From a virus (lineage: Duplodnaviria; Caudoviricetes): a stretch of 58,253 nucleotides of DNA. Location: positions 1-58,253 of the IMG/VR virus record IMGVR_UViG_3300021962_000125, one strand, 5' to 3'. The notes below the pieces were generated by a model. The model was not told the DNA's origin, did no database searches, and worked only from the letters and a program-made list of their open reading frames with translations. The position numbers and the translations under genes were made by a program. Positions 35,279 to 52,030 of the stretch are shown one piece after another (position 1 is the stretch's first letter; each line of letters starts with the position of its first letter).

Positions 35279-35307
35279 TACTACTGATGCACTTTGAAGG
35301 GCCCAGT
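35279..35307 (-). repeat. 29-bp element copy 1
   Basis: ACTGGGCCCTTCAAAGTGCATCAGTAGTA. Confidence 0.95.
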
Positions 35308-35337
35308 ATTGTTCACTGAACCGGTCTTAAGTGTTAC

Positions 35338-35586
35338 TTAGAAGTCGAACACATCGCTATTGATCTGGATGACATTTACAGCAGGATCATTCCACTCAAC
35401 ACCATCAGGAGTTTGTGTCATGAATTCGCTGATATTTGCAACGAACTGCTTATAGTCAACACAACGACGAGCGATGTTATACAAACCCTCATCATTGCTG
35501 ATCCAGAGTGCAACATTCCAGGTCTCATAATTCTCCCACCCGTTATACGAAGTGTCGAGAACATTGCTTTGGAAAGTGGTGCTCAC
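35338..35586 (-). CDS. Conserved phage protein (YNGWxNYETWNVALW family)
   Basis: Motif recognised; sole gene between copies 2 and 1. Confidence 0.8.
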   Translation of the reverse strand: MSTTFQSNVLDTSYNGWENYETWNVALWISNDEGLYNIARRCVDYKQFVANISEFMTQTPDGVEWNDPAVNVIQINSDVFDF

Positions 35587-35605
35587 TGTGTGGGTTTCGT
35601 CCTTA

Positions 35606-35634
35606 CACTACTGATGCACTTTCAGGGGCCCAAT
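35606..35634 (-). repeat. 29-bp element copy 2
   Basis: ATTGGGCCCCTGAAAGTGCATCAGTAGTG. Confidence 0.95.
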
Positions 35635-35659
35635 AGTGTTCACTGTGCGTCCCTATGTG

Positions 35660-35833
35660 TTACCAACGGTCGGGAGTTGACAGGTCTTCCACATAAGCCT
35701 CACACCTCTCAGCTGGTTCCAACTTGAATAACTTCTCCCAGTCAATCTGATGCGGGTCAAAGTCAGGAAACGCAGAGATGTCTAGGGTGATGCGATAACG
35801 TACCTTCTGTGCTTGTGAATAGGCAACTGACAT
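35660..35833 (-). CDS. 57-aa protein MSVAYSQAQKVRYRITLDI...DRW (absent from ORF track)
   Basis: Manual translation; AAGGAG RBS and a sigma70 promoter upstream. Confidence 0.75.
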   Translation of the reverse strand: MSVAYSQAQKVRYRITLDISAFPDFDPHQIDWEKLFKLEPAERCEAYVEDLSTPDRW

Positions 35834-35860
35834 AAGTGCGCTCCTTTGTGTTATGAGAGT

Positions 35861-35889
35861 ACTATAAGATGCCTGGGCGTAAATGTCAA
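35861..35889 (-). promoter_or_regulatory. Sigma70 promoter TTGACA-N17-TATAGT
   Basis: Near-perfect consensus with 17-nt spacing. Confidence 0.8.
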
Positions 35890-36057
35890 GGTCTATGGGG
35901 ATATTTATGAGCGGGGTGTGGATTTTTTTGAGGGATCTGTGTGGATTTTATGACCCGGGATTTGACAAAGTGTGGGTGAGTGTGTTATAGCTCGCAAGGT
36001 AAGATAACGACCCAGAGAGACATTAAAAGACTCATAAGTTCTCCACCATTCTAACAC

Positions 36058-36113
36058 TTTTCCACAGGTTTTTCCACACATTTATTATACTTTTTCCACA
36101 ACATTGTGGAAAA
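36058..36113. promoter_or_regulatory. Cluster of four TTTTCCACA DnaA-box-like 9-mers (3 forward, 1 reverse); candidate origin
   Basis: 36058-36066, 36070-36078, 36092-36100 and reverse 36105-36113. Confidence 0.65.
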
Positions 36114-36139
36114 CTAATATCAGTATTTCGACACTTAAG

Positions 36140-36147
36140 TATAAATA
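36140..36147 (+). promoter_or_regulatory. T4 late promoter TATAAATA for the plus-strand endonuclease
   Basis: Exact consensus 27 nt upstream of the start. Confidence 0.8.
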
Positions 36148-36173
36148 ACGCAGACACATTTTTTATCAATTCA

Positions 36174-37187
36174 GTGGCATATATCTACTCAATCACCAAC
36201 CTTCAGAATAGCAAACTCTACGTCGGAAAGACTACGCAACCCAACCCATATGATAGATGGAAGCAACACCTACAGAACGCAAGAAGTAAGGATAATTTAG
36301 CAGAGAACAATTCATCTCACTCTATGCCTATTGTTCGTGCCATATGTAAGTACGGAGCAGACAACTTTAAGTTTAGAGTATTGGAAGAATGTAGCGATGA
36401 TAATGTTAATGAACGTGAAACCTTTTGGATAAACAAACTTGATACTTGTGGTAAGAATGGGTATAACATTACGTTAGGTGGTGATGGTGTAAAGAAACCA
36501 CAAAAGTATTGGGCAAATCATCCACATTCTAAAGCAGTGAGTTGTTATACATTAGAAGGTGAATGGGTTAGAGACTATGAGACTATGGGATTAGCAGCAA
36601 TAGATGTAAGCGGAAAGAAAAAAAGTTCACCTATTCGTTTTTGTATTAAAGGTGTTACATTTCAGGCATTTGGTTATAGATGGGCTTGGAAAGGTGAACA
36701 ACCTAAAGTAGTAGAAAAGAGAGTGAATGTTCGCGGTGTTGTGTATGGTATCAATCCAACATTAGGACGCAAAAAGATGTGGAAATCACAAGCAGATGCT
36801 GCAGAAGAAATAACTGGAAATCGTAAGAATAACTCTAATCTTTTACTTTCAATACGCAGTCCTGATAATAACAAATGGCAAGTAAATGGGTGGTATTTGT
36901 TTAGATCAAAACCAACAGATTGGAAACCAGCAACAAAGACAAGATCAACAGAACACTATAAAAAAGCAGCAGCAATATCAAATGAAAAAAGAAAGAAACC
37001 TGTCTATGGAGTGAATATTAAAACTGGCAAAATCGTAGAGTTTGAGAGTATGAGCGAAGCATCATTTTTTATCAAAGGTGAAGGAAACTACAAAGGAGTT
37101 GCTAACATCACCAACAACATTGAACGTATAAAGAATGGGCAAACTTGGTGCAATGCTTATGGTTACAGATGGTACGAAAAAGCATAA
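36174..37187 (+). CDS. GIY-YIG homing endonuclease with repeated NUMOD1-like helix-turn-helix modules
   Basis: YIYSITN...LYVGKT...RWKQH, ERETFWI, GYNITLGGDG; repeated S..EAA...AYGYRW modules. Confidence 0.9.
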   Translation: MAYIYSITNLQNSKLYVGKTTQPNPYDRWKQHLQNARSKDNLAENNSSHSMPIVRAICKYGADNFKFRVLEECSDDNVNERETFWINKLDTCGKNGYNITLGGDGVKKPQKYWANHPHSKAVSCYTLEGEWVRDYETMGLAAIDVSGKKKSSPIRFCIKGVTFQAFGYRWAWKGEQPKVVEKRVNVRGVVYGINPTLGRKKMWKSQADAAEEITGNRKNNSNLLLSIRSPDNNKWQVNGWYLFRSKPTDWKPATKTRSTEHYKKAAAISNEKRKKPVYGVNIKTGKIVEFESMSEASFFIKGEGNYKGVANITNNIERIKNGQTWCNAYGYRWYEKA

Positions 37188-37209
37188 AAAAAGAGGGTGT
37201 AATCCCTCT
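37186..37209 (-). terminator. Intrinsic terminator for the minus-strand early transcript
   Basis: AGAGGG-ATTACA-CCCTCT followed by a T7 tract on the minus strand, between convergent genes. Confidence 0.8.
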
Positions 37210-37213
37210 GTTG

Positions 37214-37339
37214 TTATTGATTCTCAACTGCAAAAGATTCGATCCCATTCACTATTCGATTCCCTAGATTTGCTATCCCATTGAATCCAACTGTTGAAAG
37301 AATGATACCAACGACTACACCTATAAAGAACTTTGACAT
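37214..37339 (-). CDS. 41-aa membrane peptide MSKFFIGVVVGIILSTVGFNGIA...
   Basis: Manual translation. Confidence 0.65.
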   Translation of the reverse strand: MSKFFIGVVVGIILSTVGFNGIANLGNRIVNGIESFAVENQ

Positions 37340-37470
37340 TATACTAGGTGAGCAGGACTACCACAAGAAAGATAAAACTCAACCATCCTCTTTGCTTCAT
37401 CTAATGTAGAGAATGATTGCTCTCTCCACTGTTGCTGATACGGTGTAAAGTAACGGATCTTGAACATCAT
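37339..37470 (-). CDS. 43-aa protein (IRYFTPYQQQWREQSF...MVEFYLSCGSPA)
   Basis: Manual translation; coupled to both neighbours. Confidence 0.7.
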   Translation of the reverse strand: MMFKIRYFTPYQQQWREQSFSTLDEAKRMVEFYLSCGSPAHLV

Positions 37471-37649
37471 TTTGTTGAATAAAGACAGGAACTAACTTTA
37501 CCTGGAGTTGCGATAACTTGTCCTCCTTTCTCTATACATTGTGCTTCTACTTGTGTATTTCTAACATTGATAATACCAAGAAGAAGTAAGAGAAAAAGAA
37601 TACCTCCAATAATGATGATTACGTTCATTTGGAGTTGTTCTTTGTTCAT
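37467..37649 (-). CDS. Small membrane-anchored protein
   Basis: One hydrophobic segment plus CIEKGG...C. Confidence 0.65.
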   Translation of the reverse strand: MNKEQLQMNVIIIIGGILFLLLLLGIINVRNTQVEAQCIEKGGQVIATPGKVSSCLYSTK

Positions 37650-37655
37650 AAGATT

Positions 37656-37970
37656 TCAGTTCAAACGCATACCAGAGAAGAAAGGAAGTGGACCACCTTC
37701 ATAGTTAATGAACCATTGACCTTTCTTCTGGAAGACATACTCATCTCCACAGCCGTGTGCTTGAAGAAGTGCATTAAGACGCGATTTTGTGGTGTTTGAT
37801 TGATACCCACCATCGAACAATTCGATCCAGGTTTCGCCAATTCGGGCAATCAAATTACCGTACAGAAAGACATCACTGGAGTTGGTATAGTTGATGACTT
37901 CAGTGTTATCTTTCTTCCAATCCTTTTGATTCAGGATTGCATCATTCATTTGCTTTTCGATGACTCGCAT
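37656..37970 (-). CDS. Conserved phage early protein
   Basis: MRVIEKQM...LYGNLIA...DGGYQSNTTKSRLNAL. Confidence 0.8.
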   Translation of the reverse strand: MRVIEKQMNDAILNQKDWKKDNTEVINYTNSSDVFLYGNLIARIGETWIELFDGGYQSNTTKSRLNALLQAHGCGDEYVFQKKGQWFINYEGGPLPFFSGMRLN

Positions 37971-37990
37971 TGTGCTTTGTGTGTTGCTTA

Positions 37991-38019
37991 TACTACTGAT
38001 GCACTTTCAAGGGCCCAGT
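37991..38019 (-). repeat. 29-bp element copy 3
   Basis: Exact consensus; upstream stop at 38021. Confidence 0.97.
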
Positions 38020-38020
38020 T

Positions 38021-38191
38021 TCAATCAGTGATAACATAAGATCCTTCAACACTACAAAACTCCATCAAATAATAATCAAGGTTAATACCTAATTCATCAG
38101 CAACGGGATAACATTCTTCATATTGTTCTTGTGAAAGAATAAAGTAATTCGTCTCAATCTTTGTCAATTTGTCCACCTTTGATTTCGACAT
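38021..38191 (-). CDS. Small acidic protein (LGINLDYYLMEF); start uncertain
   Basis: C-terminal part of the 92-aa track ORF. Confidence 0.6.
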   Translation of the reverse strand: MSKSKVDKLTKIETNYFILSQEQYEECYPVADELGINLDYYLMEFCSVEGSYVITD

Positions 38192-38303
38192 TTTCAAGAA
38201 CGGTAACAATTTGATTCGTCGGAGTAAGGTAGTCAATCTGAAGAACATTCGGTGCGATTTCAGTAGAGCCAATGATCGCAGATGCAAGGAGAAGTTCAAT
38301 CAT
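38154..38303 (-). CDS. 49-aa protein MIELLLASAIIGSTEIAPNVLQIDYL...
   Basis: Manual translation. Confidence 0.6.
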   Translation of the reverse strand: MIELLLASAIIGSTEIAPNVLQIDYLTPTNQIVTVLENVEIKGGQIDKD

Positions 38304-38305
38304 AA

Positions 38306-38536
38306 TCAGTCGAAACGTGAAGAAAGATCAGGACCAGGATTTTCGAGATGTGCTACACTATCGGCAACAGATTCTTGAGAAAGTGCAAACTGAACCTTTT
38401 TTCCATTGTAGTAAATGTCAAAGACAGATTGCACATAAGGTGTTAGATTACCTTCAGAATCCCAGGCATTTCGTGTATGTGAAGTCTCAACGATTTGGTA
38501 GACTTTAGAGGTGAGAGGTGAAACGTAAGTGCTCAT
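38306..38536 (-). CDS. Hypothetical early protein; ATG overlaps repeat copy 4
   Basis: ORF track. Confidence 0.75.
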   Translation of the reverse strand: MSTYVSPLTSKVYQIVETSHTRNAWDSEGNLTPYVQSVFDIYYNGKKVQFALSQESVADSVAHLENPGPDLSSRFD

Positions 38537-38564
38537 ACTACTACTGCACTTTCAAGGGCCCAGT
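38536..38564 (-). repeat. 29-bp element copy 4
   Basis: ACTGGGCCCTTGAAAGTGCAGTAGTAGTA; the upstream ORF reads into it and stops inside (…TGPLKVQ*). Confidence 0.95.
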
Positions 38565-38807
38565 TGTTACACTTTCAATCATTTCATTCACATATTCTTC
38601 GTCATAGAACTGCGAAATCTCTTCGATTAACTCTTCTGGAAGTGAGAAGTCGCGGCGGATGTTTTCTTCAATCGTTTCGCTTGCAAATTGTACCAAACTG
38701 TCGAGGTCCATACCATCAACAATCGACTCAACGTAGATTGCAAGCAGTTTATCGTATTGGTCTTGAGTAAGTTCCATTTTGTTTGAGAAATTGGGGAGGG
38801 AAATCAT
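38541..38807 (-). CDS. Small acidic protein, similar to 34826..35011
   Basis: YVESIVDGMDLDSL...EELIEEI. Confidence 0.75.
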   Translation of the reverse strand: MISLPNFSNKMELTQDQYDKLLAIYVESIVDGMDLDSLVQFASETIEENIRRDFSLPEELIEEISQFYDEEYVNEMIESVTTGPLKVQ

Positions 38808-39034
38808 TGAATAACAGTGTTCACATTCGGGTCAAAAGTAACTTCAGAGATCACATCAAAATCATCAGTCATCTTGACATAATTCCAGAGAGTGTCAGTC
38901 TCATCATCTACATTTTCCTGATAAAGGTGAATGAAACCGTTCTCATCTTGCTTTACATATGCACCATCATAATTCTCATCATCGAATACATAACCAGATG
39001 CAATCAGTGCTTCAATGAAAGTCATAATCTTCAC
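38804..39034 (-). CDS. Small acidic hypothetical protein
   Basis: ORF track; ATGA overlaps. Confidence 0.75.
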   Translation of the reverse strand: MKIMTFIEALIASGYVFDDENYDGAYVKQDENGFIHLYQENVDDETDTLWNYVKMTDDFDVISEVTFDPNVNTVIQ

Positions 39035-39192
39035 CAGTTAATGAGTGTAGCAATGTTCCCAAGTTTATTCTGTTCGTCTACAATCTCCATCGCGTGATTG
39101 TATGTCTTGACGGAAATGTAACGTGCTTTTCCTCTTGTCTCTGGAAACAGATTCAGTTTGTCAATGATACGAACTGTGTTGGTATGTTTCAT
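39031..39192 (-). CDS. 53-aa protein MKHTNTVRIIDKL...
   Basis: Manual translation; ATGA overlaps on both sides. Confidence 0.7.
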   Translation of the reverse strand: MKHTNTVRIIDKLNLFPETRGKARYISVKTYNHAMEIVDEQNKLGNIATLINW

Positions 39193-39431
39193 TTCAGAAC
39201 GTGGCGATAATCAAGAGATTTGATGCACCAACCATAGGCAGTTGTAATCTCTTCAACTAAATCATCCTCATCATCTGCCTCCCAGATTTGACCGATTGTT
39301 GCTTGAGTGACATAATCAAACTCCAAGAATCCATCACATTCTGCATCGTGTTCTGGGGATTGAGGATCACCACAATAGGGACACTCATCATCAAAATCAA
39401 ACTCAATATCAGTAACTTGGAATTGCATCAA
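39189..39431 (-). CDS. Acidic protein with CPYC insert
   Basis: FQVTDIEFDF...WEADDEDDLVEEIT...GWCIKSLDY. Confidence 0.75.
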   Translation of the reverse strand: MMQFQVTDIEFDFDDECPYCGDPQSPEHDAECDGFLEFDYVTQATIGQIWEADDEDDLVEEITTAYGWCIKSLDYRHVLK

Positions 39432-39694
39432 ACTGCACCTGCCATAAAGTTGTATTCTTGCACCAGGTTAATGTTATCACCAGTGATCACATATTCAAGT
39501 GCCAGGCGATCATCAATCTCACGTTGTGCATCTTTTTTGGTCAGACACTTTTGAGAGATCGTATCAATACCCTTCCAAGAAAGAACCTTGAGAGTGTAGT
39601 TGGAACAATCCTCAATCGGATAGAAACCGACGATCATTGTACCGTCTTTAGACTGAAGCGTAGGAAACTCAATCATCGTAGGAGTGGTGTTCAT
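39428..39694 (-). CDS. Hypothetical early protein; ATG overlaps repeat copy 5
   Basis: ORF track. Confidence 0.75.
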   Translation of the reverse strand: MNTTPTMIEFPTLQSKDGTMIVGFYPIEDCSNYTLKVLSWKGIDTISQKCLTKKDAQREIDDRLALEYVITGDNINLVQEYNFMAGAV

Positions 39695-39722
39695 ACTACT
39701 GATGCACTTTCAAGGGCCCAGT
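39694..39722 (-). repeat. 29-bp element copy 5
   Basis: Exact consensus. Confidence 0.97.
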
Positions 39723-39727
39723 TTGAA

Positions 39728-39907
39728 TCAGAGACCGTTAATGTAGTCAGCAAGTGCATCTTTGTACTCTTTTTCAGTCTCAAAGATGCGACCGTGAATG
39801 TTGAGAGGAAACTTCTTCTCAACACCTGCAGCTGCTACCATTCGGCAGTCTGCTTCATCGTAACCCATTTCAATCAGGTTTTGAACGTAAGGATTGTAGT
39901 TTGTCAT
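39728..39907 (-). CDS. 59-aa protein MTNYNPYVQNLIEMGYDEADCR...; sole gene between copies 6 and 5
   Basis: Manual translation. Confidence 0.75.
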   Translation of the reverse strand: MTNYNPYVQNLIEMGYDEADCRMVAAAGVEKKFPLNIHGRIFETEKEYKDALADYINGL

Positions 39908-39935
39908 ACTACTGATGCACTTTCAAGGGCCCAAT
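39907..39935 (-). repeat. 29-bp element copy 6
   Basis: ATTGGGCCCTTGAAAGTGCATCAGTAGTA. Confidence 0.97.
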
Positions 39936-40078
39936 TACTTGAACGTTGCATTAACTCCAACAATTTTAGCAGTCGGGTTTCTGATTTGTGCAGTTTCGCG
40001 GGCATCTTTCGGAGAGTTAGCATACACTTCCTCTTTGAAGACTTTGCCGCCCACGTATAATTGTACTTCATATTTCAT
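39935..40078 (-). CDS. 47-aa conserved phage protein MKYEVQLYVGGKVFKEEVYA...ARETAQIRNPTAKIVGVN
   Basis: Manual translation; stop overlaps copy 6. Confidence 0.8.
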   Translation of the reverse strand: MKYEVQLYVGGKVFKEEVYANSPKDARETAQIRNPTAKIVGVNATFK

Positions 40079-40269
40079 AGTGTTTGAAACTCCTGTGCTT
40101 CTTTGATGTTAGAATCGAAAAACTTTTGCAGAATGGAACTGATCACAGGTTGCCATTCTTTATCTTTAATTAGGTCACGATTTTGTGCTTCAACAAGAAA
40201 CTTAAGGATGCAAGTCTCTTCATTAGCAGTGAACTTAACACGAGTGAATGTGTAACCGTCAGTCATCAA
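40075..40269 (-). CDS. Hypothetical protein
   Basis: ORF track. Confidence 0.7.
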   Translation of the reverse strand: MMTDGYTFTRVKFTANEETCILKFLVEAQNRDLIKDKEWQPVISSILQKFFDSNIKEAQEFQTL

Positions 40270-40424
40270 TCATCTCCGAAGTTATTAACAAGAAAGTCCT
40301 CAAGTTCACAAAGTTCCACCTCATCCAAGGAGGAAATGTAGTTGTGCAAAGTATCTACCAAGACCCCATTATTCTTTTGGCAGGTTTCATACAGAAACTC
40401 AAAAAGTTGCGTTTTGTTAGTCAT
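40266..40424 (-). CDS. 52-aa acidic protein MTNKTQLFEFLYE...
   Basis: Manual translation. Confidence 0.65.
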   Translation of the reverse strand: MTNKTQLFEFLYETCQKNNGVLVDTLHNYISSLDEVELCELEDFLVNNFGDD

Positions 40425-40426
40425 AA

Positions 40427-40708
40427 TCAAACCAGAGAAAGTTCAGGGGCAGGTTCTACCTTAAATGTACCAAGTCGGTTGCAAGTAATACTCACAGCGT
40501 GAGCAGGAGCACCGAGTTCATCAACAACTTCCCACCAATCTTCACCCTCTTCAATGACAACATATCCGAAAGTTCCAGGTTGAGAGAGTTGACGACGACC
40601 ACACTGTTTGGCATCATTTACATCATCAAATCGTTGCTTACGATTAAACCAACCGTTTCGTGCAACATCATCAGAAGGACCGAAAGTAATGCAAAGAAAG
40701 TTAGACAT
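40427..40708 (-). CDS. Hypothetical protein
   Basis: ORF track; tight packing. Confidence 0.7.
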   Translation of the reverse strand: MSNFLCITFGPSDDVARNGWFNRKQRFDDVNDAKQCGRRQLSQPGTFGYVVIEEGEDWWEVVDELGAPAHAVSITCNRLGTFKVEPAPELSLV

Positions 40709-40710
40709 AA

Positions 40711-40980
40711 TCAGTTAGCGTACAGTGGGAGTTTCTTACGGAGACGGATTGAATCATCAATCACCTCACCAATCTGTTCGTAAATGTAGTCGGAACCGCC
40801 TACATCAGCGAGCACATCTTGAGTGAAAAGAGAAGAAAAATACTTCTCTTGATTGTCTTCACCATCAAACTCAACAACATCGTGTTGAGTGAATACAAAC
40901 GCAGCACAGGGAGCGTTCTCACCTTGTACCTCAATCATTTGGTTGATAGAGTCACGAAGTTCAGAAAGTGTGCGGTACAT
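40711..40980 (-). CDS. Hypothetical protein (QGENAPCAAFVFT)
   Basis: ORF track. Confidence 0.75.
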   Translation of the reverse strand: MYRTLSELRDSINQMIEVQGENAPCAAFVFTQHDVVEFDGEDNQEKYFSSLFTQDVLADVGGSDYIYEQIGEVIDDSIRLRKKLPLYAN

Positions 40981-40982
40981 AA

Positions 40983-41126
40983 TCAGTTTTTGTTGCGAGG
41001 GTTAATGTCAATTAAGCGGTCAAGTGCTTCACCAATCGTAGAGCGAACTTGCTCATCTTTCAGTGATACTTGCTCATACACTTCGTAAAGGGAAATGTAA
41101 ATGTCGTCCCATTGAGTTTGTGTCAT
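40983..41126 (-). CDS. Small hypothetical protein MTQTQWDDIY...
   Basis: Internal ATG of the track ORF. Confidence 0.65.
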   Translation of the reverse strand: MTQTQWDDIYISLYEVYEQVSLKDEQVRSTIGEALDRLIDINPRNKN

Positions 41127-41128
41127 AA

Positions 41129-41368
41129 TCAGGCAGGAAGAATACAGAAAGTGCCACACCAGTTGCGAACCCATTGTAGAGTTTCGTAGTAAGATGTGCG
41201 CGGATTGCTCATCTCCATTGTAGAACCATTGCGGGGATTGTGTGCAACGGCAACAAAGAGATTATCGCACTCTTTATCAGTGATCTGCTCAATCCACATT
41301 TGATTGACTTTGCCTTCCTTCCAATCGGTGTGGTAGGAGTAGACTTCGGAAACGATGGTGTTGCTCAT
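41129..41368 (-). CDS. Hypothetical early protein; ATG overlaps repeat copy 7
   Basis: ORF track. Confidence 0.75.
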   Translation of the reverse strand: MSNTIVSEVYSYHTDWKEGKVNQMWIEQITDKECDNLFVAVAHNPRNGSTMEMSNPRTSYYETLQWVRNWCGTFCILPA

Positions 41369-41396
41369 ACTACTGATGCACTTTCAAGGGCCCAGT
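41368..41396 (-). repeat. 29-bp element copy 7
   Basis: Exact consensus. Confidence 0.97.
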
Positions 41397-41401
41397 TTCA
41401 A

Positions 41402-41656
41402 TCACCAGCGGCCTTGTTGGATGAGAATCTTTTTGATTTCAGTATAAATGAACTGACGAAGTTTAGTGTCGGTAGTGTTATCAAAAGCATAATAAAGACG
41501 ATTCAAATACTCATTCTGTGTGACACCAATGTTACCATCACCACCGATCTCATTGAGTGAGGAACCTGCTTTAGCTTTGGGTTTTCCCCAATTCCCAGTT
41601 ATGCGACCTTCAGTACGAAGTTTAGGGCGAATCTTTGAGAGGTTAGAGTAAGTCAT
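41402..41656 (-). CDS. Basic hypothetical protein
   Basis: ORF track. Confidence 0.75.
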   Translation of the reverse strand: MTYSNLSKIRPKLRTEGRITGNWGKPKAKAGSSLNEIGGDGNIGVTQNEYLNRLYYAFDNTTDTKLRQFIYTEIKKILIQQGRW

Positions 41657-45363: not shown

Positions 45364-45890
45364 ACTAGGAACCTCTTTTCATATTCAAGCAGATCAGATG
45401 GGGCAGGAATGATGTTGTCATCATATTCTACAGCAGTTTTCCAAGTTGCACCATTTTTTTGATACAATTTGATGCCAAGATGTTGATATTTGAGATGAGT
45501 TGGAATATGAACTTTGTAGTCGATTCCATTATTCTCTGTCAGCATACTTAAGCGTCTATTCTCATCCTTTGTAACAGTAATTGTGGAGCAGGACAACCAG
45601 AATAGATTCTCAAATACATCATAGTCTGACAGGTATTTGTCTGGATGATCCATAATCATTCGACCGATGAATTGCGGCGACAAACAGTGATCGTGAGTGC
45701 GCTCTACAGGATTATCCTTTGCTGTCTCACTTATCAGGCCAAGGTGATTGACTTGTCCACAATCAAACACACCAATGTAGTACAATCTTGTGATGGGTCG
45801 AAAGAAATCAGGATCTCCCCAGTTGTCTACATTTGCTGCCATTGAGTTAAATGTAGTTTGGCAGTATGCTTTCCAGTTCTTGGGGTTCAT
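45360..45890 (-). CDS. Hypothetical protein, possibly a His-Me finger (HNH-like) nuclease
   Basis: THDHCLSP...TITVTKDENRRL resembles a DH...N arrangement; inference. Confidence 0.55.
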   Translation of the reverse strand: MNPKNWKAYCQTTFNSMAANVDNWGDPDFFRPITRLYYIGVFDCGQVNHLGLISETAKDNPVERTHDHCLSPQFIGRMIMDHPDKYLSDYDVFENLFWLSCSTITVTKDENRRLSMLTENNGIDYKVHIPTHLKYQHLGIKLYQKNGATWKTAVEYDDNIIPAPSDLLEYEKRFLV

Positions 45891-46011
45891 TTTGAGAAAA
45901 ATTGGTGATTTGGTTGCGCTGGATGAGTTCTAGGTCGGTTGCAGTGAAATTGCAGAAAAATCAGGGTCTGACCCCTGATGGCCACTTGAGTCTTGAGTGA
46001 GACTCACCGCC

Positions 46012-46512
46012 TCATCTGTAAGGTTGACCCTTCTCTGCTTGTTTTCTTCTCCATTCTCTCATATAAAGAGCGTGAGGTGATACACTTTCTTCTGGTGCAT
46101 ATTTACCCTTGTTTGGCGGTATTCTACCTTTAAGACTTTCCTTCATTTTGACTATACTTTCTTGAGTATGTTTTCTTCCGTAGAAATGATTTTTACTTCC
46201 CATTCTACTTTGAGACATTCTACTCCTTGTTGTTTCCGTGAGAGTTGCTCCAGAAGTTCCATCACCACCATTAGTTCTGTTCCAAAGAATACCAGTTCCT
46301 AAATCTTTTCTACCCAATACATTGATTAGATAGATTTCGTGCTTAAATGCGTCCTCTTCGTTATCGAAATGTTTGAGGATTAAAACTCTATCTACTGGAG
46401 GAACAAAAACATATCCTTTGTGGTCTCTATATGCTCTTTTATCTTTTCCCTTACCAATGTAGTAAGGTGTTCCGTCCTCACGCAGATATGCGTAGGTGTA
46501 GTATTCTTTCAT
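46012..46512 (-). CDS. GIY-YIG-like (Seg-type) homing endonuclease with NUMOD3
   Basis: YTYAYLREDGTPYYIGKG, EIYLI, NRTNGGDG, NHFYGRKHTQES. Confidence 0.88.
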   Translation of the reverse strand: MKEYYTYAYLREDGTPYYIGKGKDKRAYRDHKGYVFVPPVDRVLILKHFDNEEDAFKHEIYLINVLGRKDLGTGILWNRTNGGDGTSGATLTETTRSRMSQSRMGSKNHFYGRKHTQESIVKMKESLKGRIPPNKGKYAPEESVSPHALYMREWRRKQAEKGQPYR

Positions 46513-46513
46513 C

Positions 46514-46586
46514 GTAAGTCTTGGCGTGACTATTAGTATTTATAGCATAAATGTGGGACTTACGCAACCAATCCGCCAAGACTTAC
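46514..46586 (-). promoter_or_regulatory. 13-bp inverted repeat over the HEG translation start, with late promoter TATAAATA (46537-46544) in the loop
   Basis: GTAAGTCTTGGCG (46514-46526) / CGCCAAGACTTAC (46574-46586). Confidence 0.8.
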
Positions 46587-46606
46587 TGTTGCTGCCCACA
46601 CTCTAT

Positions 46607-47794
46607 TTACCGCCGCACTACACTATCAACCATCTCACCTTTCTCAAACACAGCATCAACGACTCGCTGAAGTGCTCGCTCTGTAGATACTCCAACTTTG
46701 GAATATACAGGCACAACACAGAGACCGAACACCTTCTCTTTGCCACCAAGGCGAAGAACACGACCAATAGTTTGAGTCATTTCGATCACATCCATATTGC
46801 GAAGAAATACAACAGCTTCTAGTTCGCTCACATTGATTCCTTCACTCAAGATAGAGCGATGGAAGCAAACAAACTTCTTGTTAGGATCACGACCCCAAGC
46901 ATTGAGTGTATCAAAAAATACCTCACGATTCACCTTCTTACCATCAATAATCGCTCCAGTTTTTGAGGTGATATAGAGGTAAGAATAACCACGCTGATTT
47001 AGTTGGGCAGCACAGTCAGTATGAGACATCAGGTTGATAAGTTGCTTCGCAGACTTAACACAGACCAGGATTTTCTTGCAATCAATATCCTCCAGAGTAT
47101 CCATAAGATTACTACTATCACACTCTGCAGTTACCTGCTTCGGTGCAAGAACATCAAACTTCTTTGCTACAATTTTAGGAGCAATGATGTATCCACCATC
47201 AACAAGTTCAGGAGCAGAAACGCGACAGATAATGTCACCATAGACATCACGATCATTCATTCCAGGTTTAGAAGGAGTGAGCGAAGTCTTCCTAGTTGCA
47301 GTGAAGAAATAGCAGCGACGTGCATTAGCAGCAAAGTGTTCAGTCGCAGGGAAAAAGTGACGCTGAACGCTATTATGGGCTTCGTCAAAGTAAATCGTAT
47401 CCACATCAATTCCTGCCACTTGCAGACGTGACAGAGAGTTGTAGGTGGTTACAATCAGGCGATGACTGTCAGCATTAGCATCAACCCAGCGACGAATCTC
47501 ACGAGGGCGAGTAGAAGATTCGTGGTGAGTTTCGCCACTATGAACGTGGAATACTTTTGCGTTGGTGATAAACTCCAGGAACTCGCTGGAGAGTTGCTCT
47601 GCCAAGAGAATACGAGGAGCAACAACAACAATGGTCTGGGGAGTTTCAGACTGCAACTCACGCAGACAATCATAGATCATCTTCAGAGTCTTGCCACCAC
47701 CAGTAGGAACAATGACTTGACCTTTATCATGCTGTTGCATAGCAGCAACACCACGTTCCTGATGAGGGCGAAGATTGATCAGATGAGGAATCAT
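46607..47794 (-). CDS. SF2 DEAH / ResIII-type helicase
   Basis: LRPHQ, PTGGGKT, FDEAH, FTAT, LSEGIN, QTIGRVLR. Confidence 0.93.
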   Translation of the reverse strand: MIPHLINLRPHQERGVAAMQQHDKGQVIVPTGGGKTLKMIYDCLRELQSETPQTIVVVAPRILLAEQLSSEFLEFITNAKVFHVHSGETHHESSTRPREIRRWVDANADSHRLIVTTYNSLSRLQVAGIDVDTIYFDEAHNSVQRHFFPATEHFAANARRCYFFTATRKTSLTPSKPGMNDRDVYGDIICRVSAPELVDGGYIIAPKIVAKKFDVLAPKQVTAECDSSNLMDTLEDIDCKKILVCVKSAKQLINLMSHTDCAAQLNQRGYSYLYITSKTGAIIDGKKVNREVFFDTLNAWGRDPNKKFVCFHRSILSEGINVSELEAVVFLRNMDVIEMTQTIGRVLRLGGKEKVFGLCVVPVYSKVGVSTERALQRVVDAVFEKGEMVDSVVRR

Positions 47795-47835
47795 TACGAA
47801 TTACAGAGTTTCGGGTGGTTTGGTATCTAAAAAGC

Positions 47836-47871
47836 ATTATAGCACCCTTCCTGACGCTTGGAAAGGGTGCT
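47836..47871 (-). promoter_or_regulatory. Sigma70 promoter TTTCCA-N17-TATAAT (extended TG) in a stem-loop (AGCACCCTT/AAGGGTGCT)
   Basis: -10 at 47836-47841, -35 at 47859-47864; upstream of the helicase. Confidence 0.75.
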
Positions 47872-47883
47872 GGTGGAGTTTAA

Positions 47884-48039
47884 TCAACCACCGAACATTT
47901 CATCAAACAACCAATCACCAGAACGCTCTTTTTCTTCCCAGACTTTGTTAGCGTTTGCTTCAATCATTGCTCGTTCAATCTTCATATCAATAGGGGAAAC
48001 TGTGCTGTACCAGGTTCCGTTGCGATCTTGCCAGAGCAT
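47884..48039 (-). CDS. 51-aa protein MLWQDRNGTWYST...WLFDEMFGG
   Basis: Manual translation; downstream of copy 12. Confidence 0.7.
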   Translation of the reverse strand: MLWQDRNGTWYSTVSPIDMKIERAMIEANANKVWEEKERSGDWLFDEMFGG

Positions 48040-48058
48040 TGTGTTGTGTGTCGTCTTA

Positions 48059-48087
48059 TATTACTGACGCACTTTCAAGGGCCCAGT
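48059..48087 (-). repeat. 29-bp element copy 12
   Basis: ACTGGGCCCTTGAAAGTGCGTCAGTAATA; abuts the stop at 48088. Confidence 0.95.
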
Positions 48088-48723
48088 TTACTTACCAGGC
48101 GTGAGTGAGGATTGATATTCAGATGCTGGTTTCTCTTTCTTCTTCTGAAGATCTGCCTGCAATCTCTTACCAGTTCTTACAATTCTCTTTTTCTCTTCTC
48201 TAGTGTAAGGTCTCTTTTCTCCCTTTGGAAGTAGAGAACCTTTGATCATATGATCTTCTTTATCACCAGAAGTTTCTTTCTTTGCTGGTGCTTTCTTTGA
48301 GAGAAGTTGTGTTGCTTTCTTCTCTGCTTCTTTTGCTTTTGGTTTCTCTGCTGTTACAGTTTCACCTTTCTTTTTAGCAGCAATTCTAGCAAGTGCTGCT
48401 CTCTTTCTTTCTTCTTTAGCGGCAGCAGCTGCTTTTGCTTTTACATCAGCAGCACCTCTTTCTTTTTCAGGTTGCTGAACTCTTGTTGATGCTTGGCGTT
48501 GAGTTCCAATATCCTTTCTTTCTTTATATCCAGCAGGAACTCTCTTAACTTTACCAGTCTCGGGATCTTTGACTGATTTCATTCTTCTTTTTTCTGCTTC
48601 CGATTTCTTACGTTCAGCAGAAATACGACCACCTGCACCCATCGTGCGGATTTGCGAACCAGACATTACTTCTTTATCGTAAGTTGCTTCGCAAAGAGTC
48701 ATAAAATCGCTGAACGTAATCAT
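48088..48723 (-). CDS. Lys/Ala-rich basic protein; candidate capsid-internal DNA-binding protein
   Basis: N-terminus MITFSDFMTLCEA; CTAAATA late-like motif at 48748-48754. Confidence 0.7.
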   Translation of the reverse strand: MITFSDFMTLCEATYDKEVMSGSQIRTMGAGGRISAERKKSEAEKRRMKSVKDPETGKVKRVPAGYKERKDIGTQRQASTRVQQPEKERGAADVKAKAAAAAKEERKRAALARIAAKKKGETVTAEKPKAKEAEKKATQLLSKKAPAKKETSGDKEDHMIKGSLLPKGEKRPYTREEKKRIVRTGKRLQADLQKKKEKPASEYQSSLTPGK

Positions 48724-48750
48724 CGGATGTTTAGAATAACTTTCTAGTAT

Positions 48751-49269
48751 TTAGATTGTATCATTTTTTTGTTTTTTTCTATACTCTCTCATATAAAGTG
48801 CATGAGGTGTAACTTCATTGATTGGTTTTGTTTTTTTATTACGCAAGTTTTCTCTAAAATTTAATGAGTGTTTTATTCCTTTATTACCTTGTCCATTTTT
48901 ATTACCTTTCATTGCATCACTTAATTTTTTTCTTGTTTTATTGTTTACTTCTTTTCCTTTCAATTTATCACTTATTTTTAATTTTGTCTCATCTTTCATC
49001 ATAACGCCGCTGCCTCCTTCTCCACCATTTGTATGATTTTGCAATATTCCAGTACCAATATCTTTACGACCAAATAATGCTATCATATAAACTTCGTGAT
49101 TAAATGCTTCTTGCTCTGTTAAATTCTTTTTTAGAAATAACCTTCTTTCTTTTGGTGGTAGGTTTACATTGTGTTGCTTATCATTTATTCTTTTATTTCT
49201 TCCTTTACCAATGTAATAAGGAGTACCGTCTTCACGCAAATAAGCGTAAGTGTAAAAGTTGTTATTCAT
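48751..49269 (-). CDS. GIY-YIG-like homing endonuclease, paralog of 46012..46512
   Basis: Identical YTYAYLREDGTPYYIGKG; GRKDIGTGIL.N.TNGGEG; C-terminal PHALYMRE. Confidence 0.88.
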   Translation of the reverse strand: MNNNFYTYAYLREDGTPYYIGKGRNKRINDKQHNVNLPPKERRLFLKKNLTEQEAFNHEVYMIALFGRKDIGTGILQNHTNGGEGGSGVMMKDETKLKISDKLKGKEVNNKTRKKLSDAMKGNKNGQGNKGIKHSLNFRENLRNKKTKPINEVTPHALYMREYRKKQKNDTI

Positions 49270-49279
49270 TCTTGTCTTG

Positions 49280-49350
49280 AAGAGTCGCAATAATATTTAT
49301 ACAAGAAAAGAGGCATTTCTGCCTCCTCTCTACTTAAAGATGCGACTCTT
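49280..49350 (-). promoter_or_regulatory. 10-bp inverted repeat upstream of the HEG start, with late promoter TATAAATA (49294-49301) in the loop
   Basis: AAGAGTCGCA (49280-49289) / TGCGACTCTT (49341-49350). Confidence 0.75.
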
Positions 49351-49362
49351 AAGCATCATTAT

Positions 49363-49551
49363 TTATGAATCTTCTTTAGCACGACCCTTACTAACTCGGC
49401 CTGTTTCATAAAACCACTTAACACGTTCGCGTCTTGCAGTCAATAAAAGTTGATAAGATTCAGATTGCGAAGAAGAAAACTTAAAGTCTTGACGACGATA
49501 CGCTTCTTTCAGTTCGTTCAGATGAGGCAGAACATTTACAGTGTCAGTCAT
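49363..49551 (-). CDS. Hypothetical protein
   Basis: ORF track. Confidence 0.75.
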   Translation of the reverse strand: MTDTVNVLPHLNELKEAYRRQDFKFSSSQSESYQLLLTARRERVKWFYETGRVSKGRAKEDS

Positions 49552-49556
49552 TTGTA

Positions 49557-49694
49557 TCAGAAATCAATGTTAGAGTTAATCAGTTTATTGAAAGATTTAG
49601 TATCTTCTTCTTCCTCAAAGAGATCTTCATTCATTTCTTCAACAAAGTCAAAGGAAGAAAACTCTTCAATTTGGAGATCATCAAAGCAGTCCAT
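49557..49694 (-). CDS. 45-aa very acidic protein MDCFDDLQIEEFSSFDFVEEMNEDLFEEED...
   Basis: Manual translation; downstream of copy 13. Confidence 0.7.
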   Translation of the reverse strand: MDCFDDLQIEEFSSFDFVEEMNEDLFEEEEDTKSFNKLINSNIDF

Positions 49695-49713
49695 AAATCA
49701 GATGAGTTGCTTA

Positions 49714-49742
49714 CATAACTGATGCACTTTCAAGGGCCCAGT
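49714..49742 (-). repeat. 29-bp element copy 13
   Basis: ACTGGGCCCTTGAAAGTGCATCAGTTATG. Confidence 0.95.
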
Positions 49743-49747
49743 TTGAA

Positions 49748-49939
49748 TCAACGAGACAGAATTGCTTTCATTCTTGCACGCTTTGCTGCTTGTTGTGCTC
49801 TTGCTTCACCACCCAATTCCTGATGAACATGCTTAATTTGTGAAGTCTTTTGTGCTGCTTGACGCATTGCAACTTGCTTACTATAGAAATTGGGTTCCAT
49901 TTCTGGAGTTTGTTCCATAAATTGCTGAAACGTTTTCAT
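49748..49939 (-). CDS. Small protein with capsid-targeting-like N-terminus MKTFQQFME
   Basis: Resembles T4 internal-protein leader MKTYQEFIAE; AATAAATA at 49959-49966. Confidence 0.75.
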   Translation of the reverse strand: MKTFQQFMEQTPEMEPNFYSKQVAMRQAAQKTSQIKHVHQELGGEARAQQAAKRARMKAILSR

Positions 49940-49966
49940 TTTATCGACACTTTTTGATTATTTATT

Positions 49967-50242
49967 TTATTCAAACTCAAAGGATCTATTTGATACTTTC
50001 ATGGGTGGAGTTTGATACTCTGGGATATTAGAAGATTCAACAAATACTTCTACTTTAGTCTCATCATTCCAGTGACGAATTACACCAGCAACGATGAAGG
50101 CATTGGTAATCAAATACGTCGCAAAAATAAAAGTTCGGATAAGTGCTACCTTATCCGACTCTTTATCACATTTACTTGCTTTTTCTCCCAAGGCTTTGGC
50201 CCACCATCTCCAAGCAGTTTTTTTCTTCATAAACAGATTCAC
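49967..50242 (-). CDS. Conserved phage membrane protein (WRWWAKALGEKA...D.VALIRT...AGVIRHW)
   Basis: ORF track; motif. Confidence 0.75.
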   Translation of the reverse strand: MNLFMKKKTAWRWWAKALGEKASKCDKESDKVALIRTFIFATYLITNAFIVAGVIRHWNDETKVEVFVESSNIPEYQTPPMKVSNRSFEFE

Positions 50243-50456
50243 GCGACATTACATATTCTAGTTGTTTCCATTGTTCATTATAGCACAAGACCAAAACTCT
50301 TTCGTTTCGATGTAAACTGCAGCACTGATAGTTTATATCATCTTTTGGTCGAACTGCAACTTCTATTGTAATATAACTACTATCCTTAAAATAAACCCAT
50401 CCCTCAACACCTTTTGTCCATTTGACATAATCGTTGATTTTAGGTTCGTAGGTCAT
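50172..50456 (-). CDS. Conserved hypothetical protein (EGWVYFK...YITIEV)
   Basis: ORF track. Confidence 0.75.
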   Translation of the reverse strand: MTYEPKINDYVKWTKGVEGWVYFKDSSYITIEVAVRPKDDINYQCCSLHRNERVLVLCYNEQWKQLEYVMSRESVYEEKNCLEMVGQSLGRKSK

Positions 50457-50734
50457 ACAAAGAACTTTTCGACTCCTTGGTATTTAATAGGCATTGAAGT
50501 ATAGTTTCTTGTGTCGCTGATGTTTACACGAGCACCGATGGTTTTACTATTGATTGGGGCGAAGTATTCTCTGGTCTTGGACTTGTAGAATCCCCAGATG
50601 GTTCGCGTTGAAGCACCGTTATTGTAATCAAACTTACGATGGCAATGCAACCATATAGCAATAACTCCCCGCTTGAACTCTTCAAACTCATAAGAATATC
50701 CCTTTGGTGGATGGTGCGGAAATTCAGCAATCAT
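50453..50734 (-). CDS. Conserved hypothetical protein (FPHHPPKGYSYE...TIWGFY)
   Basis: Internal ATG of the track ORF. Confidence 0.75.
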   Translation of the reverse strand: MIAEFPHHPPKGYSYEFEEFKRGVIAIWLHCHRKFDYNNGASTRTIWGFYKSKTREYFAPINSKTIGARVNISDTRNYTSMPIKYQGVEKFFV

Positions 50735-50890
50735 AGAACTTGTCTCGCGACATATACTCAATTTGTTTCTGCAGTTGTGAGATTTCGTGTTCTTGTTCTG
50801 CAATTTTACTTTGCAGTTGTTCAATGCGATCTTGATACTGTTTCTTCAAATCAGACACCATTTGATTGGTGTGAGCAACGTGGTGAGTCA

Positions 50891-51133
50891 TCAGGTTGTG
50901 AAAGATTCAACTACGCCAGATTCTACATCTTCTGCAAGGGCATAAGTTCTTGCGTTTAACACATTTTCACGAAGAGCAGTGTAATGCTGTTCATAGAAGT
51001 TGTCATCATCTTCTGCAGCAATCAAATCAAAACATTCATTGTCGTTTTCTGCAATGACATTCCACAGTCCACCATATTCACTGGAGGGAAAAGGAATGTA
51101 GTGGTCAACAATATAAAGAAACTTTTGTGCCAT
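50891..51133 (-). CDS. Conserved hypothetical protein (PFPSSEYGG)
   Basis: ORF track; promoter and AAGGAG upstream. Confidence 0.8.
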   Translation of the reverse strand: MAQKFLYIVDHYIPFPSSEYGGLWNVIAENDNECFDLIAAEDDDNFYEQHYTALRENVLNARTYALAEDVESGVVESFTT

Positions 51134-51156
51134 TTGTGTTTGAAAATTACTCCTTT

Positions 51157-51185
51157 AGTATAAGTTTAAGATTGCAATTTGTCAA
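51157..51185 (-). promoter_or_regulatory. Sigma70 promoter TTGACA-N17-TATACT
   Basis: -35 at 51180-51185, -10 at 51157-51162. Confidence 0.8.
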
Positions 51186-51319
51186 TAAAACTCCGCGAGA
51201 TAATAGTCTACTGTAACCTCAAGTTTTGCTGCTTCACGCTCAACTTCTTTCCAGAACTCTTCTGCTACTTTGTCCATTTCTGCTTGTTTAATAAGATCGC
51301 GGAGTCGTTTCGGAATCAT
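51182..51319 (-). CDS. 45-aa protein ending LEVTVDYYLAEFY
   Basis: Manual translation; C-terminus similar to the 38021 protein. Confidence 0.7.
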   Translation of the reverse strand: MIPKRLRDLIKQAEMDKVAEEFWKEVEREAAKLEVTVDYYLAEFY

Positions 51320-51568
51320 TTGAGTTTCTCCTTAAGTTGTTGTTCTTCGCGTGGATACATTACCTTAAAGTAATATAACACAGTGGATGATACAAATGCA
51401 ACCAGAGCAGTGTAGATTGCAATAGCAAATCCAATGCTCATTTCATTTGCTGAATTGCTTGCTGGCGATAGTATGCTTTATACATTGCATCATCACGTTG
51501 AATTAGAAACACATTCCAACCAAGCATAAAGATGAAACCAAGAGCAGTGTAAGTGACGTAACGCTTAA

Positions 51569-51985
51569 TCATACAGCAAGGGCAGCAGAGGGGATTTCAA
51601 CAATTTCAGGAAGTTTGCTATCATCAAACTGGTGCATATTATAGCACACCCATTCACCATTGCGGAATACATAAGCATACTCTTCGCTGTTACCAGGCAG
51701 CAGATACTCACAAAGGTCAGCATCAAGGCGAGGGGGGCAATCTTCACCACGTTGAGAGTAATATTCGGGACCATAAACACCTTTTACAGCACTATCATCC
51801 CAACGAGAATCAGTCCAGCAAGAAGACATATCGCCACCATCTATGAGTTCTGCTGCCTTTTCATAAGAATTATAATGAGTCTTTAGGATACGACCCAACC
51901 AGGACTCATAACCGTCCCAATGATGATACACAGAGAGAATAGGACCATCTTTAAGTTCAAGACCGATTCGTGCTCGCGTTGACAT
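51569..51985 (-). CDS. Conserved phage protein (MSTRARIG...SVYHHWDGY...EEYAYVF)
   Basis: Motif recognised; first gene after copy 14. Confidence 0.82.
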   Translation of the reverse strand: MSTRARIGLELKDGPILSVYHHWDGYESWLGRILKTHYNSYEKAAELIDGGDMSSCWTDSRWDDSAVKGVYGPEYYSQRGEDCPPRLDADLCEYLLPGNSEEYAYVFRNGEWVCYNMHQFDDSKLPEIVEIPSAALAV

Positions 51986-52001
51986 TTGATCGTGGTGCTT
52001 A

Positions 52002-52030
52002 CACTATAGAAGCACTTTCAGGGGCCCAAT
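52002..52030 (-). repeat. 29-bp element copy 14
   Basis: ATTGGGCCCCTGAAAGTGCTTCTATAGTG. Confidence 0.9.

Follow-up and report, generated by a model that had tools for sequence, protein, structure and literature searches.

Promoter-early stem-loop elements (PeSLs) are known in the T4-type phages RB49/phi1, T4/PST, and KVP40/nt-1. They are described as repeated, co-oriented intergenic cassettes between small open reading frames (ORFs) in the hyperplastic regions of T4-like genomes, with indel and swap breakpoints inside the repeat and an own consensus in each phage lineage (PMC2839356; PMC4122927). The same traits are found in the locus studied here, an array of 14 copies of a 29-bp element at positions 35279–52030 of IMGVR_UViG_3300021962_000125, a 58,253-nt IMG/VR virus record (Caudoviricetes) that was analysed over its entire length (hereafter, the window). 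Unlike PeSLs, the element has neither the sigma-70 −35/N17/−10 layout nor a stem-loop terminator, and because both are missing it is not a PeSL. It also differs in carrying, in place of the −35 hexamer, a box that is private to each viral lineage, in often including the start codon of the next gene, and in being accompanied by a covarying protein.

At T4 middle promoters, the MotA box (TGCTT-type) has its centre near −30 and lies about 12 nt 5' of the −10 element. The array element is arranged alike: a box that is not of the sigma-70 type sits near −30, at the same distance of about 12 nt from a −10-like hexamer. The proposed reader of the box, a basic 211-aa protein encoded in the array, resembles MotA in joining a constant part to a putatively DNA-specific C-terminal part; MotA also has 211 residues, but the match in length is a coincidence only. 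Unlike the MotA box, to which it is unrelated, the box of the element is lineage-specific in step with the protein, and neither the Pfam MotA model nor any solved structure matches the 211-aa protein. In T4, middle promoters are described as depending on MotA and AsiA, through sigma appropriation (PMC2988021, PMC6755090). Both motA and asiA are reported to be missing from cyanomyoviruses, and the timing of early and middle genes in T4-like cyanophages without MotA, AsiA, Alt, and Mod is described as unclear (PMC2984593, PMC5780444). The present data offer a testable answer for one clade, in the form of a defined DNA signal and a candidate protein that can be named. Four cultured phages have both: S-SM2, SynMITS9220M01, and S-B05 (Synechococcus), and P-TIM68 (Prochlorococcus).

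In T7-like phages, many near-identical long promoters occur, and the promoter and the specificity region of the polymerase change together between lineages. T4-like phages are not known to encode an RNA polymerase. The array element differs from T7-like promoters in keeping a host-type −10-like hexamer, and the reader proposed for it is no polymerase but a small basic protein. Short repeats between tailed-virus genes that proved to be promoters are described in the halovirus HF2, whose intergenic repeats are of about 29 and 58 bp (PMC8707807). HF2, unlike the virus of the window, is an archaeal virus with AT-rich archaeal motifs, and the abstract of that report mentions neither a private box nor a covarying factor. 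No description of the element or of the 211-aa protein was found in full-text searches of the literature; what is new here is the rule followed by start codons at array heads and the covarying protein.

On balance, we favour a combined reading, in which a lineage-specific promoter-type signal heads early-gene units, the 211-aa protein is the best candidate for its reader, and recombination between copies is a by-product. The 29-bp repeat would be the core of a virus-specific promoter-type signal of about 36 nt, and in the hyperplastic early region of this T4-like cyanomyovirus the signal would head transcription units of one to five small genes. A half shared among lineages (AAAGYG, six bases, the −10-like TAGTRT, and RAGCA) would presumably be read by the host RNA polymerase, with transcription starting a few bases downstream of TAGTRT, and the private box of 12–13 nt, at about −37 to −25, would replace the sigma-70 −35 hexamer. 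At internal copies, which often have an ATG in TAGTATG, transcripts reading through from copies further upstream would supply the genes. A phage-encoded factor would most likely read the private box, and the 211-aa protein, acting through its variable C-terminus, would be analogous, not homologous, to MotA at T4 middle promoters. As direct repeats of almost identical sequence, the copies would occasionally undergo homologous recombination that deletes, inserts, or swaps whole units, as with PeSLs.

Anatomy and distribution of the element

The window has an estimated completeness of 28%. It encodes a T4-type large terminase and tail-sheath stabiliser, head-closure, and baseplate-wedge proteins, and the terminase is 84–86% identical to those of Synechococcus and Prochlorococcus myoviruses; the window is therefore a fragment of a T4-like cyanomyovirus. 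All its genes lie on the minus strand, with the exception of a GIY-YIG homing endonuclease gene, and the array is located between a block of small genes (52–58 kb) and the baseplate genes.

A preliminary description of the window, made from the sequence alone, had reported the 14 copies. A repeat finder recovered every one at the same start, on the minus (coding) strand, in register, and without indels, and the reported spacings were exact (327, 2385, 545, 1158, 213, 1461, 886, 945, 599, 1359, 2902, 1655, and 2288 bp). Searching the 29-mer with at most three mismatches matched 12 of the 14 copies, with 0 expected from 100 shuffles. Greater divergence marks the copies at 43798 and 52002, which were recovered with the 16-nt core GGGCCCYTGAAAGTGC, which at up to two mismatches gave 14 matches on the reverse strand, 0 on the forward strand, and 0 with the reversed pattern as control. 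As also reported, every copy lies at a gene junction and the structural cluster holds none; indeed, scans of the whole window with the 29-mer and the core found no copy outside 35279–52030. Consistent orientation is general, as all copies are on one strand in 36/36 related loci, and a complete relative of 219 kb has 12 copies within one region of about 25 kb. Several intervals had been described as holding exactly one gene. The ORFs in question exist (39728–39907, 42288–43199, and 35338–35586), but most units are multi-gene: across related loci, 33 units have one gene versus 109 with two or more, and one to five genes are the rule.

On the coding strand, the junction begins with the stop codon of the upstream gene, followed after 2–12 nt by WAYT GGGCCC YTGAAAGTGC atcag TAGTAT rAGCA; over 184 unique copies of the clade, the distance from this stop codon to GGGCCC is usually 2–12 nt. 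On the 3' side there is either a G-poor leader of 15–25 nt and then an ATG, or an ATG made of the last two bases of TAGTAT and a following G.

Related elements occur in part of the Kyanoviridae and make up a family, of which the element of the window is a variant. The family members have in common the shared half AAAGYG-N6-TAGTRT-RAGCA, upstream of which lies the 12–13 nt box private to each lineage. The box of the window is ACTGGGCCCYTG, and those of other lineages, for instance GTTACTCACCTCT, AAGGGGGGTCGCCT, and GTTAGTTACCTCT, are unrelated to it. The window's own version of the element is carried by no cultured phage: in a BLAST search of 50,697 phage records, it gave only partial chance matches, in seven records. 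Elements of the same architecture are present in the syntenic regions of four cultured phages, with 11 copies in SynMITS9220M01, 10 in S-SM2, 12 in S-B05, and 13, in an AT-rich form, in P-TIM68; the syntenic regions of Syn9, S-SRM01, S-SKS1, and P-SSM2 have no such array. The S-SKS1 region (L176) contains five copies of a different 15-mer, CTCTTATAAACCTTC, which may be that lineage's own repeated signal.

Scanning IMG/VR with the shared half alone retrieved at least 119 stretches. Among the matches listed, 475 copies were counted in 118 IMG/VR loci, and their boxes fall into at least 10 discrete types. A single box type was found in 82 of the 95 loci with at least four typed copies, despite the mosaic genes of these loci, and most of the 13 "mixed" loci combine types that differ by one or two bases.

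Promoter-like features and the rule of start codons

The conservation of TAGTAT was assessed on the window together with 38 related IMG/VR stretches, which gave 182 unique copies: T occurs in 177, A in 172, G in 152, T in 179, A in 149, and T in 174 (positions 0–15 of the logo are biased by the collection of the copies, and positions outside the core are unbiased). A −10 element of the TAnnnT type, as in T4 middle promoters, is thus present in the form TAGTRT. None of the 14 copies passed a scan for the two sigma-70 hexamers: there is no −35 hexamer, and a TTGAAA stands just 9 nt ahead of TAGTAT. Elsewhere in the region, the coding strand has canonical sites (for example TTGACA-17-TATAGT at 35889–35861 and TTGACC-18-TAAAAT at 52616–52587), and T4 late-type TATAAATA motifs precede three homing-endonuclease genes, in each case on the strand of the gene, and the tail-sheath stabiliser gene. 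Since both kinds of site lie elsewhere, the element represents a third kind of signal in this genome.

Hairpins of 9–12 pairs also occur in the region, on the minus strand at 43491–43433, 34600–34561, and 47880–47836. They overlap or directly precede the sigma-70-like promoters TTGCAA-17-TATTGT, TTGACT-17-TATACT, and TGCTATAAT. These hairpin-promoter modules of the window are nearer to true PeSLs than the 14-copy element is, and SynMITS9220M01 has similar ones.

The position of the start codon is informative on how the element acts. An ATG occupies positions 25–27 in 97 of the 184 unique copies, and in 93 of these 97 it opens a downstream ORF in frame. Were the element a promoter, its RNA would start downstream of the −10 hexamer and would lack any ATG that lies within it. 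We therefore compared head copies, which have no other copy in at least 3 kb of sequence upstream, and internal copies, with a previous copy within 3 kb. The overlapping ATG was present in 1/39 head copies versus 385/717 internal copies (Fisher p 1.4e-11), about five of the 39 head matches, all without ATG, looking like chance matches to the pattern. The lone head copy with an ATG has a second in-frame ATG 15 nt downstream. Furthermore, the first copy of S-B05 lies in a divergent intergenic region where the scan detected no sigma-70-type promoter on either strand. The avoidance of ATG at array heads fits a promoter whose transcripts start downstream of TAGTRT; a signal acting purely in translation would not predict it. 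Read together from these sequence features, the element is quite probably a virus-specific promoter.

Some observations pull the other way. The fourth-position T of TAGTRT (179/182) is far more conserved than in sigma-70 −10 elements. Among the 93 ATG-type copies, 22 have no alternative in-frame ATG within 60 nt; in these the ATG of the element is the sole plausible start, so that ribosomes would meet this part of the element in RNA. None of the 20 sequencing runs listed as carrying the sequence is on record as RNA. An RNA-level role, which these points keep in play, would make the element a signal for intercistronic translation initiation, re-initiation, or processing. The 211-aa protein would then bind the box in mRNA, for example recruiting ribosomes to the AUG 17–28 nt downstream or steering or blocking cleavage. 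The fixed place of the ATG, its frame, and the 22 copies without an alternative are in line with this, and so are the stop codon 2–12 nt before the element, the Shine-Dalgarno sequence that was not seen at the copies, and the protein itself, which is very basic and largely non-globular, as many RNA binders are. The other half of the copies, however, have their start codons at variable offsets, of 40–49 and beyond, which suits a fixed translational geometry poorly, and head copies avoid the ATG. Moreover, the first copy of S-B05 has upstream neither a co-directional gene nor a recognisable promoter to supply the RNA, and the conserved T, A, and T of TAGTRT match a −10 element. Nor was a conserved RNA structure detected: the folds of four copies with their flanks were no more stable than shuffles (z +0.51 to +1.72), with no hairpin, and none of the 18 terminator-like hairpins of the region adjoins an element. 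We consider action in RNA rather unlikely.

Covariation of the 211-aa protein with the private box

The protein proposed to read the box has 211 aa, is basic, belongs to no known family, and is encoded at 48088–48723 on the minus strand. In the alignment of its relatives, the N-terminal and central parts are conserved, and the C-terminal 60–90 aa exist in discrete forms that track the private box. This congruence was quantified on the trees of 54 protein families, each with at least 15 non-identical rows and at least four box types, by taking the fewest box-type changes on the tree and scaling them between the possible minimum and the mean obtained with shuffled labels. The median ratio of the 54 families was about 0.87. 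The tree of the 211-aa protein (46 rows, 10 types) required 12 changes, with a minimum of 9 and a shuffled mean of 27.1, which gives a ratio of 0.17. Among the other 53 families, one small family without power reached 0.00 (5 changes observed, minimum 5, shuffled 5.9), and the remaining 52 had ratios of at least 0.36. The C-terminal part alone needed 10 changes against the minimum of 9, and the N-terminal and central part needed 14.

The test was repeated on loci gathered by homology to the protein, leaving out the earlier contigs (37 non-identical rows, 12 box types assigned by rule from the consensus boxes, minimum of 11 changes). The last 75 aa required exactly 11 changes (shuffled mean 24.5, lowest 20), the first 120 aa 17 (shuffled mean 24.6), and the whole protein 13 (shuffled mean 24.5). 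The five neighbouring families in the same loci gave ratios of 0.5–1.3. The genes that share a unit with the 211-aa gene had ratios of 0.73 and 0.70 here, and the two neighbours in the unit had 0.67 and 0.79 in the first contig set. As these neighbours do not track the box, linkage alone fails to explain the congruence of the 211-aa protein.

The protein and the arrays also occur together. In 80 loci picked by the 211-aa protein, the shared half matched 480 times on the strand of its gene versus 42 times on the opposite one; at least three copies were present in 70/80 of these loci, and none had zero copies. The protein is encoded in only 10 of 50,697 phage records, namely S-SM2, SynMITS9220M01, P-TIM68, S-B05, RN05-S, and RB11-B (some of them twice), and two single-cell virus records. 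Arrays were found in 4/4 of the protein carriers examined and in 0/4 of the cyanomyoviruses without the protein.

A further explanation does without any reader. The element would be an ordinary promoter of the host polymerase for which the −10-like half suffices, the box would be kept uniform within each genome solely by concerted evolution, as copies duplicate or convert one another, and the 211-aa protein would hitch-hike or share descent with the array. Many cyanobacterial promoters have no −35 element, recombination between copies is documented (see below), and position 6 of the box, a less constrained one, is genome-specific, mostly T in the window and C in G001/G002, which is a sign of concerted evolution. 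Against this, discrete box types are kept across genomes with gene divergence of 15–30%, and arrays are of a single type although neighbouring genes are shuffled with respect to it (the helicase tree shows 33 box-type changes versus 36.4 for shuffled labels). The failure of the genes beside the 211-aa gene to track the box and the co-occurrence of the protein and the arrays also speak against it. A box without a reader seems improbable to us.

The proposal that the 211-aa protein reads the box has weaknesses of its own. AlphaFold models from 36 and 91 sequences are of low confidence (predicted local distance difference test, pLDDT, 63.9 and 64.7; predicted template modelling score, pTM, 0.23 and 0.24), and a Foldseek comparison with the PDB, with a best E of 2.7, revealed no recognisable DNA-binding fold. 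The mapping is not one to one, since the box GTTACTCACCTCC pairs with two C-terminal classes. The rows of the trees are related and metagenomic, with lineages possibly sampled repeatedly, so the counts of changes are not independent events. Finally, the 211-aa gene itself sits behind an element, and an activator role would therefore need basal expression, read-through, or delivery in the virion. With these points set beside the covariation, the case that the 211-aa protein reads the private box appears to us evenly poised.

The family is large and anonymous. Among 8,000 candidates scored, it has at least 2,609 relatives at E ≤0.001, none of which is named. At E ≤0.1, the 211-aa protein and 36 relatives were unmatched in Pfam apart from five chance families, NCBIfam and PHROGs gave no match to the protein, no PDB sequence was matched in a profile search at E ≤1, and a protein atlas returned only unnamed viral clusters. 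The protein is rich in lysine, arginine, and glutamate, and its model is largely non-globular.

A broader proposal, to which we would give somewhat less than an even chance, is that a subset of T4-like cyanophages, which lack MotA and AsiA, runs a whole class of early or middle genes from private-box promoters. An abundant unnamed protein family would read the box via an exchangeable C-terminal module, and box and module, switching together, would form a private transcription "address" that keeps each array its lineage's own despite gene exchange. If the pairing of box and protein holds, it would provide natural orthogonal pairs of promoter and factor, with at least 10 box types, it would explain the uniformity of arrays in mosaic genomes, and the thousands of unnamed proteins of this family in aquatic viromes would gain a function.

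Other proteins encoded just upstream of the array, of 215, 76, 54, 102, 129, 105, 238, and 57 aa, were tested as readers. In the six with enough matches to be judged, the 215-aa protein among them, identity to relatives does not follow the box type, and the 238-aa protein had too few typed matches. The 215-aa protein (52686–53333, minus strand), just upstream of the array, has a weak AbrB/MazE-like C-terminus (E 1.1e-4, below the Pfam cut-off), and the annotation of S-SRM01 includes a syntenic gene of the AbrB/MazE/SpoVT family. The second-best tracker of the box is a 47-aa family (L009:4858–5001 and relatives, with no member in the window), with 7 changes, a minimum of 5, a shuffled value of 10.5, and a ratio of 0.36 over 22 rows; its gene usually forms a single-gene unit between two elements.

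Recombination, gene content, and individual copies of the array

The preliminary description had proposed a repeat-delimited cassette system for expressing, and possibly excising, acquiring, or reordering, accessory genes. One exact recombination event between copies was found. In the window, two copies flank a 1,359-bp unit of two genes (43827–45156, minus strand), which encode a 192/195-aa protein and an N6/N4 DNA methyltransferase. The unit is absent in the relatives L024 and L025, where a single hybrid copy combines the left flank and the T-variant of copy 45157 with the diverged right part and the flank of copy 43798. A crossover therefore occurred within about 13 shared bases of the element. 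Other events bounded by elements are the replacement of the single-gene unit 35310–35599 and the insertion of two single-gene units at 37991 (L024, L047).

The wider pattern is less specific. Alignment with 13 relatives gave 265 ends of homology blocks, of which 69 are at the 14 element junctions, 102 at 36 other junctions, and 94 inside genes. This corresponds to 4.9 ends per element junction versus 2.8 per other gene junction, a 1.7-fold enrichment, with 74% of the ends elsewhere. The expectation that breakpoints in relatives would fall within the element is thus borne out by the exact indel and the enrichment, but not for the 196/265 block ends that lie elsewhere. Counted by gene family, the same successor gene was found in 89/377 locus pairs across element junctions versus 268/751 across element-free junctions, and in 0/223 pairs in which one locus has an element at the junction and the other has none. 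In a count centred on the window and summed by hand, gene adjacency was conserved in 18/81 (22%) cases at element junctions versus 37/144 (26%) at other junctions. Minority states amounted to 25/359 for the downstream gene versus 38/354 for the upstream one, a slightly tighter link of the element with the downstream gene.

These data bear on the possibility that the element is an integron-like site of site-specific recombination, at which cassettes are excised, captured, and reordered by a dedicated recombinase whose gene lies in another part of the genome. Such a site would accord with same-orientation repeats at gene junctions, some single-gene units, the exact repeat-to-repeat indel, the per-junction enrichment of block ends, and the palindromic GGGCCC. 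Yet most block ends lie elsewhere, adjacency is similar at both kinds of junction, and the element is linked slightly more to the gene that follows it than to the one that precedes it. The element contains no attC-like imperfect inverted repeats, its sole palindrome being the 6-bp GGGCCC, it forms no hairpin, and scanning 37 ORFs of the window, which is about 28% of the genome, brought up no integrase. The ATG rule of the array heads would also be left unexplained. In addition, T4-type recombination is described as working on short homologies (PMC2839356), so that a special enzyme is not required. We regard an integron-like site as very improbable, and we read the recombination at the element as a by-product of homologous recombination. 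Of the cassette proposal, the part that stands is that the repeat delimits small expression units of accessory or early type and differs from PeSLs; a dedicated system of excision and acquisition is unsupported, given the 69/265 block ends at elements, the similar adjacency, and the lack of a hairpin, of an attC-like structure, and, among the ORFs scanned, of an integrase. The repeats also serve as seams for swapping units such as the methyltransferase pair, which bears on the trade of accessory genes among phages.

DNA contigs from four sequencing runs, covering 34500–52500, are short and often end at repeats, as expected of assembly graphs, and would not reveal rare mini-circles between neighbouring copies, a trait of PeSLs. 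Some of their joints lie beside elements (for example 43827 to 41416), some between homing-endonuclease paralogues, and some elsewhere.

The description had also stated that no recombinase is visible. This holds for integrases in the ORFs scanned, and three free-standing homing-endonuclease-like genes are present: a GIY-YIG gene at 36174–37187 (plus strand) and two NUMOD3 paralogues at 46012–46512 and 48751–49290 (minus strand). The paralogues have stretches that are 85% identical, and metagenome contigs join across them, skipping about 2.85 kb that includes the helicase. The pair described as a nuclease plus a methyltransferase was half right: the methyltransferase is recognised (PF01555), but its 192/195-aa partner matches no nuclease family or solved structure. 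The anti-defence content suggested for the array is unproven, because most array genes are of no known function.

Along the array, in coding direction, copy 1 (52002–52030; all copies are on the minus strand) is the array head and has its ATG 18 nt downstream of TAGTGT. Copy 2 (49714–49742) heads the unit that ends in the 211-aa gene, and its −10-like part is TTATGT; copy 3 (48059–48087) follows immediately after the stop codon of that gene. Copies 4 (45157–45185) and 5 (43798–43826, with a diverged 3' part) are the left and the right partner of the repeat-to-repeat indel. Copy 6 (43199–43227) heads the 303-aa DUF6267 gene, which has a second in-frame ATG 15 nt downstream; about 465 records carry this DUF6267 marker. 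The ATG overlaps the element at copy 7 (42254–42282), the head of a DUF7717 gene, at copy 8 (41368–41396), with no other ATG nearby, at copy 9 (39907–39935), the head of the 59-aa single-gene unit, and at copy 10 (39694–39722); at copy 11 (38536–38564) the ATG of the gene overlaps TAGTATG. Copy 12 (37991–38019) is identical to the consensus and is the place of the two extra single-gene units of L024/L047, copy 13 (35606–35634) was detected by both the 29-mer search and the repeat finder, and copy 14 (35279–35307), the last, has the ATG of the next gene downstream.

In the copy heading the unit of the 211-aa gene (49714–49742 and its equivalents in nine related loci), the −10-like part is TAATGT, TTATGT, or TAGTGT and never TAGTAT in 10/10 rows listed, and in the same 10 copies the ATG is always downstream, at offsets 42–45. 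This variant may bear on the candidate factor's own expression.

Outside the array, the composition changes: G+C is 29–37% in the structural genes (1–34000) and 37–43% in most of the array region (34000–48000), so that the composition of the small-gene array is unlike that of the late genes. Two giant structural ORFs with internal repeats, one of 2,519 aa (8229–15788, minus strand; DUF4815) and one of 4,003 aa (17369–29380, minus strand; YHYH domain), lie between the baseplate genes.

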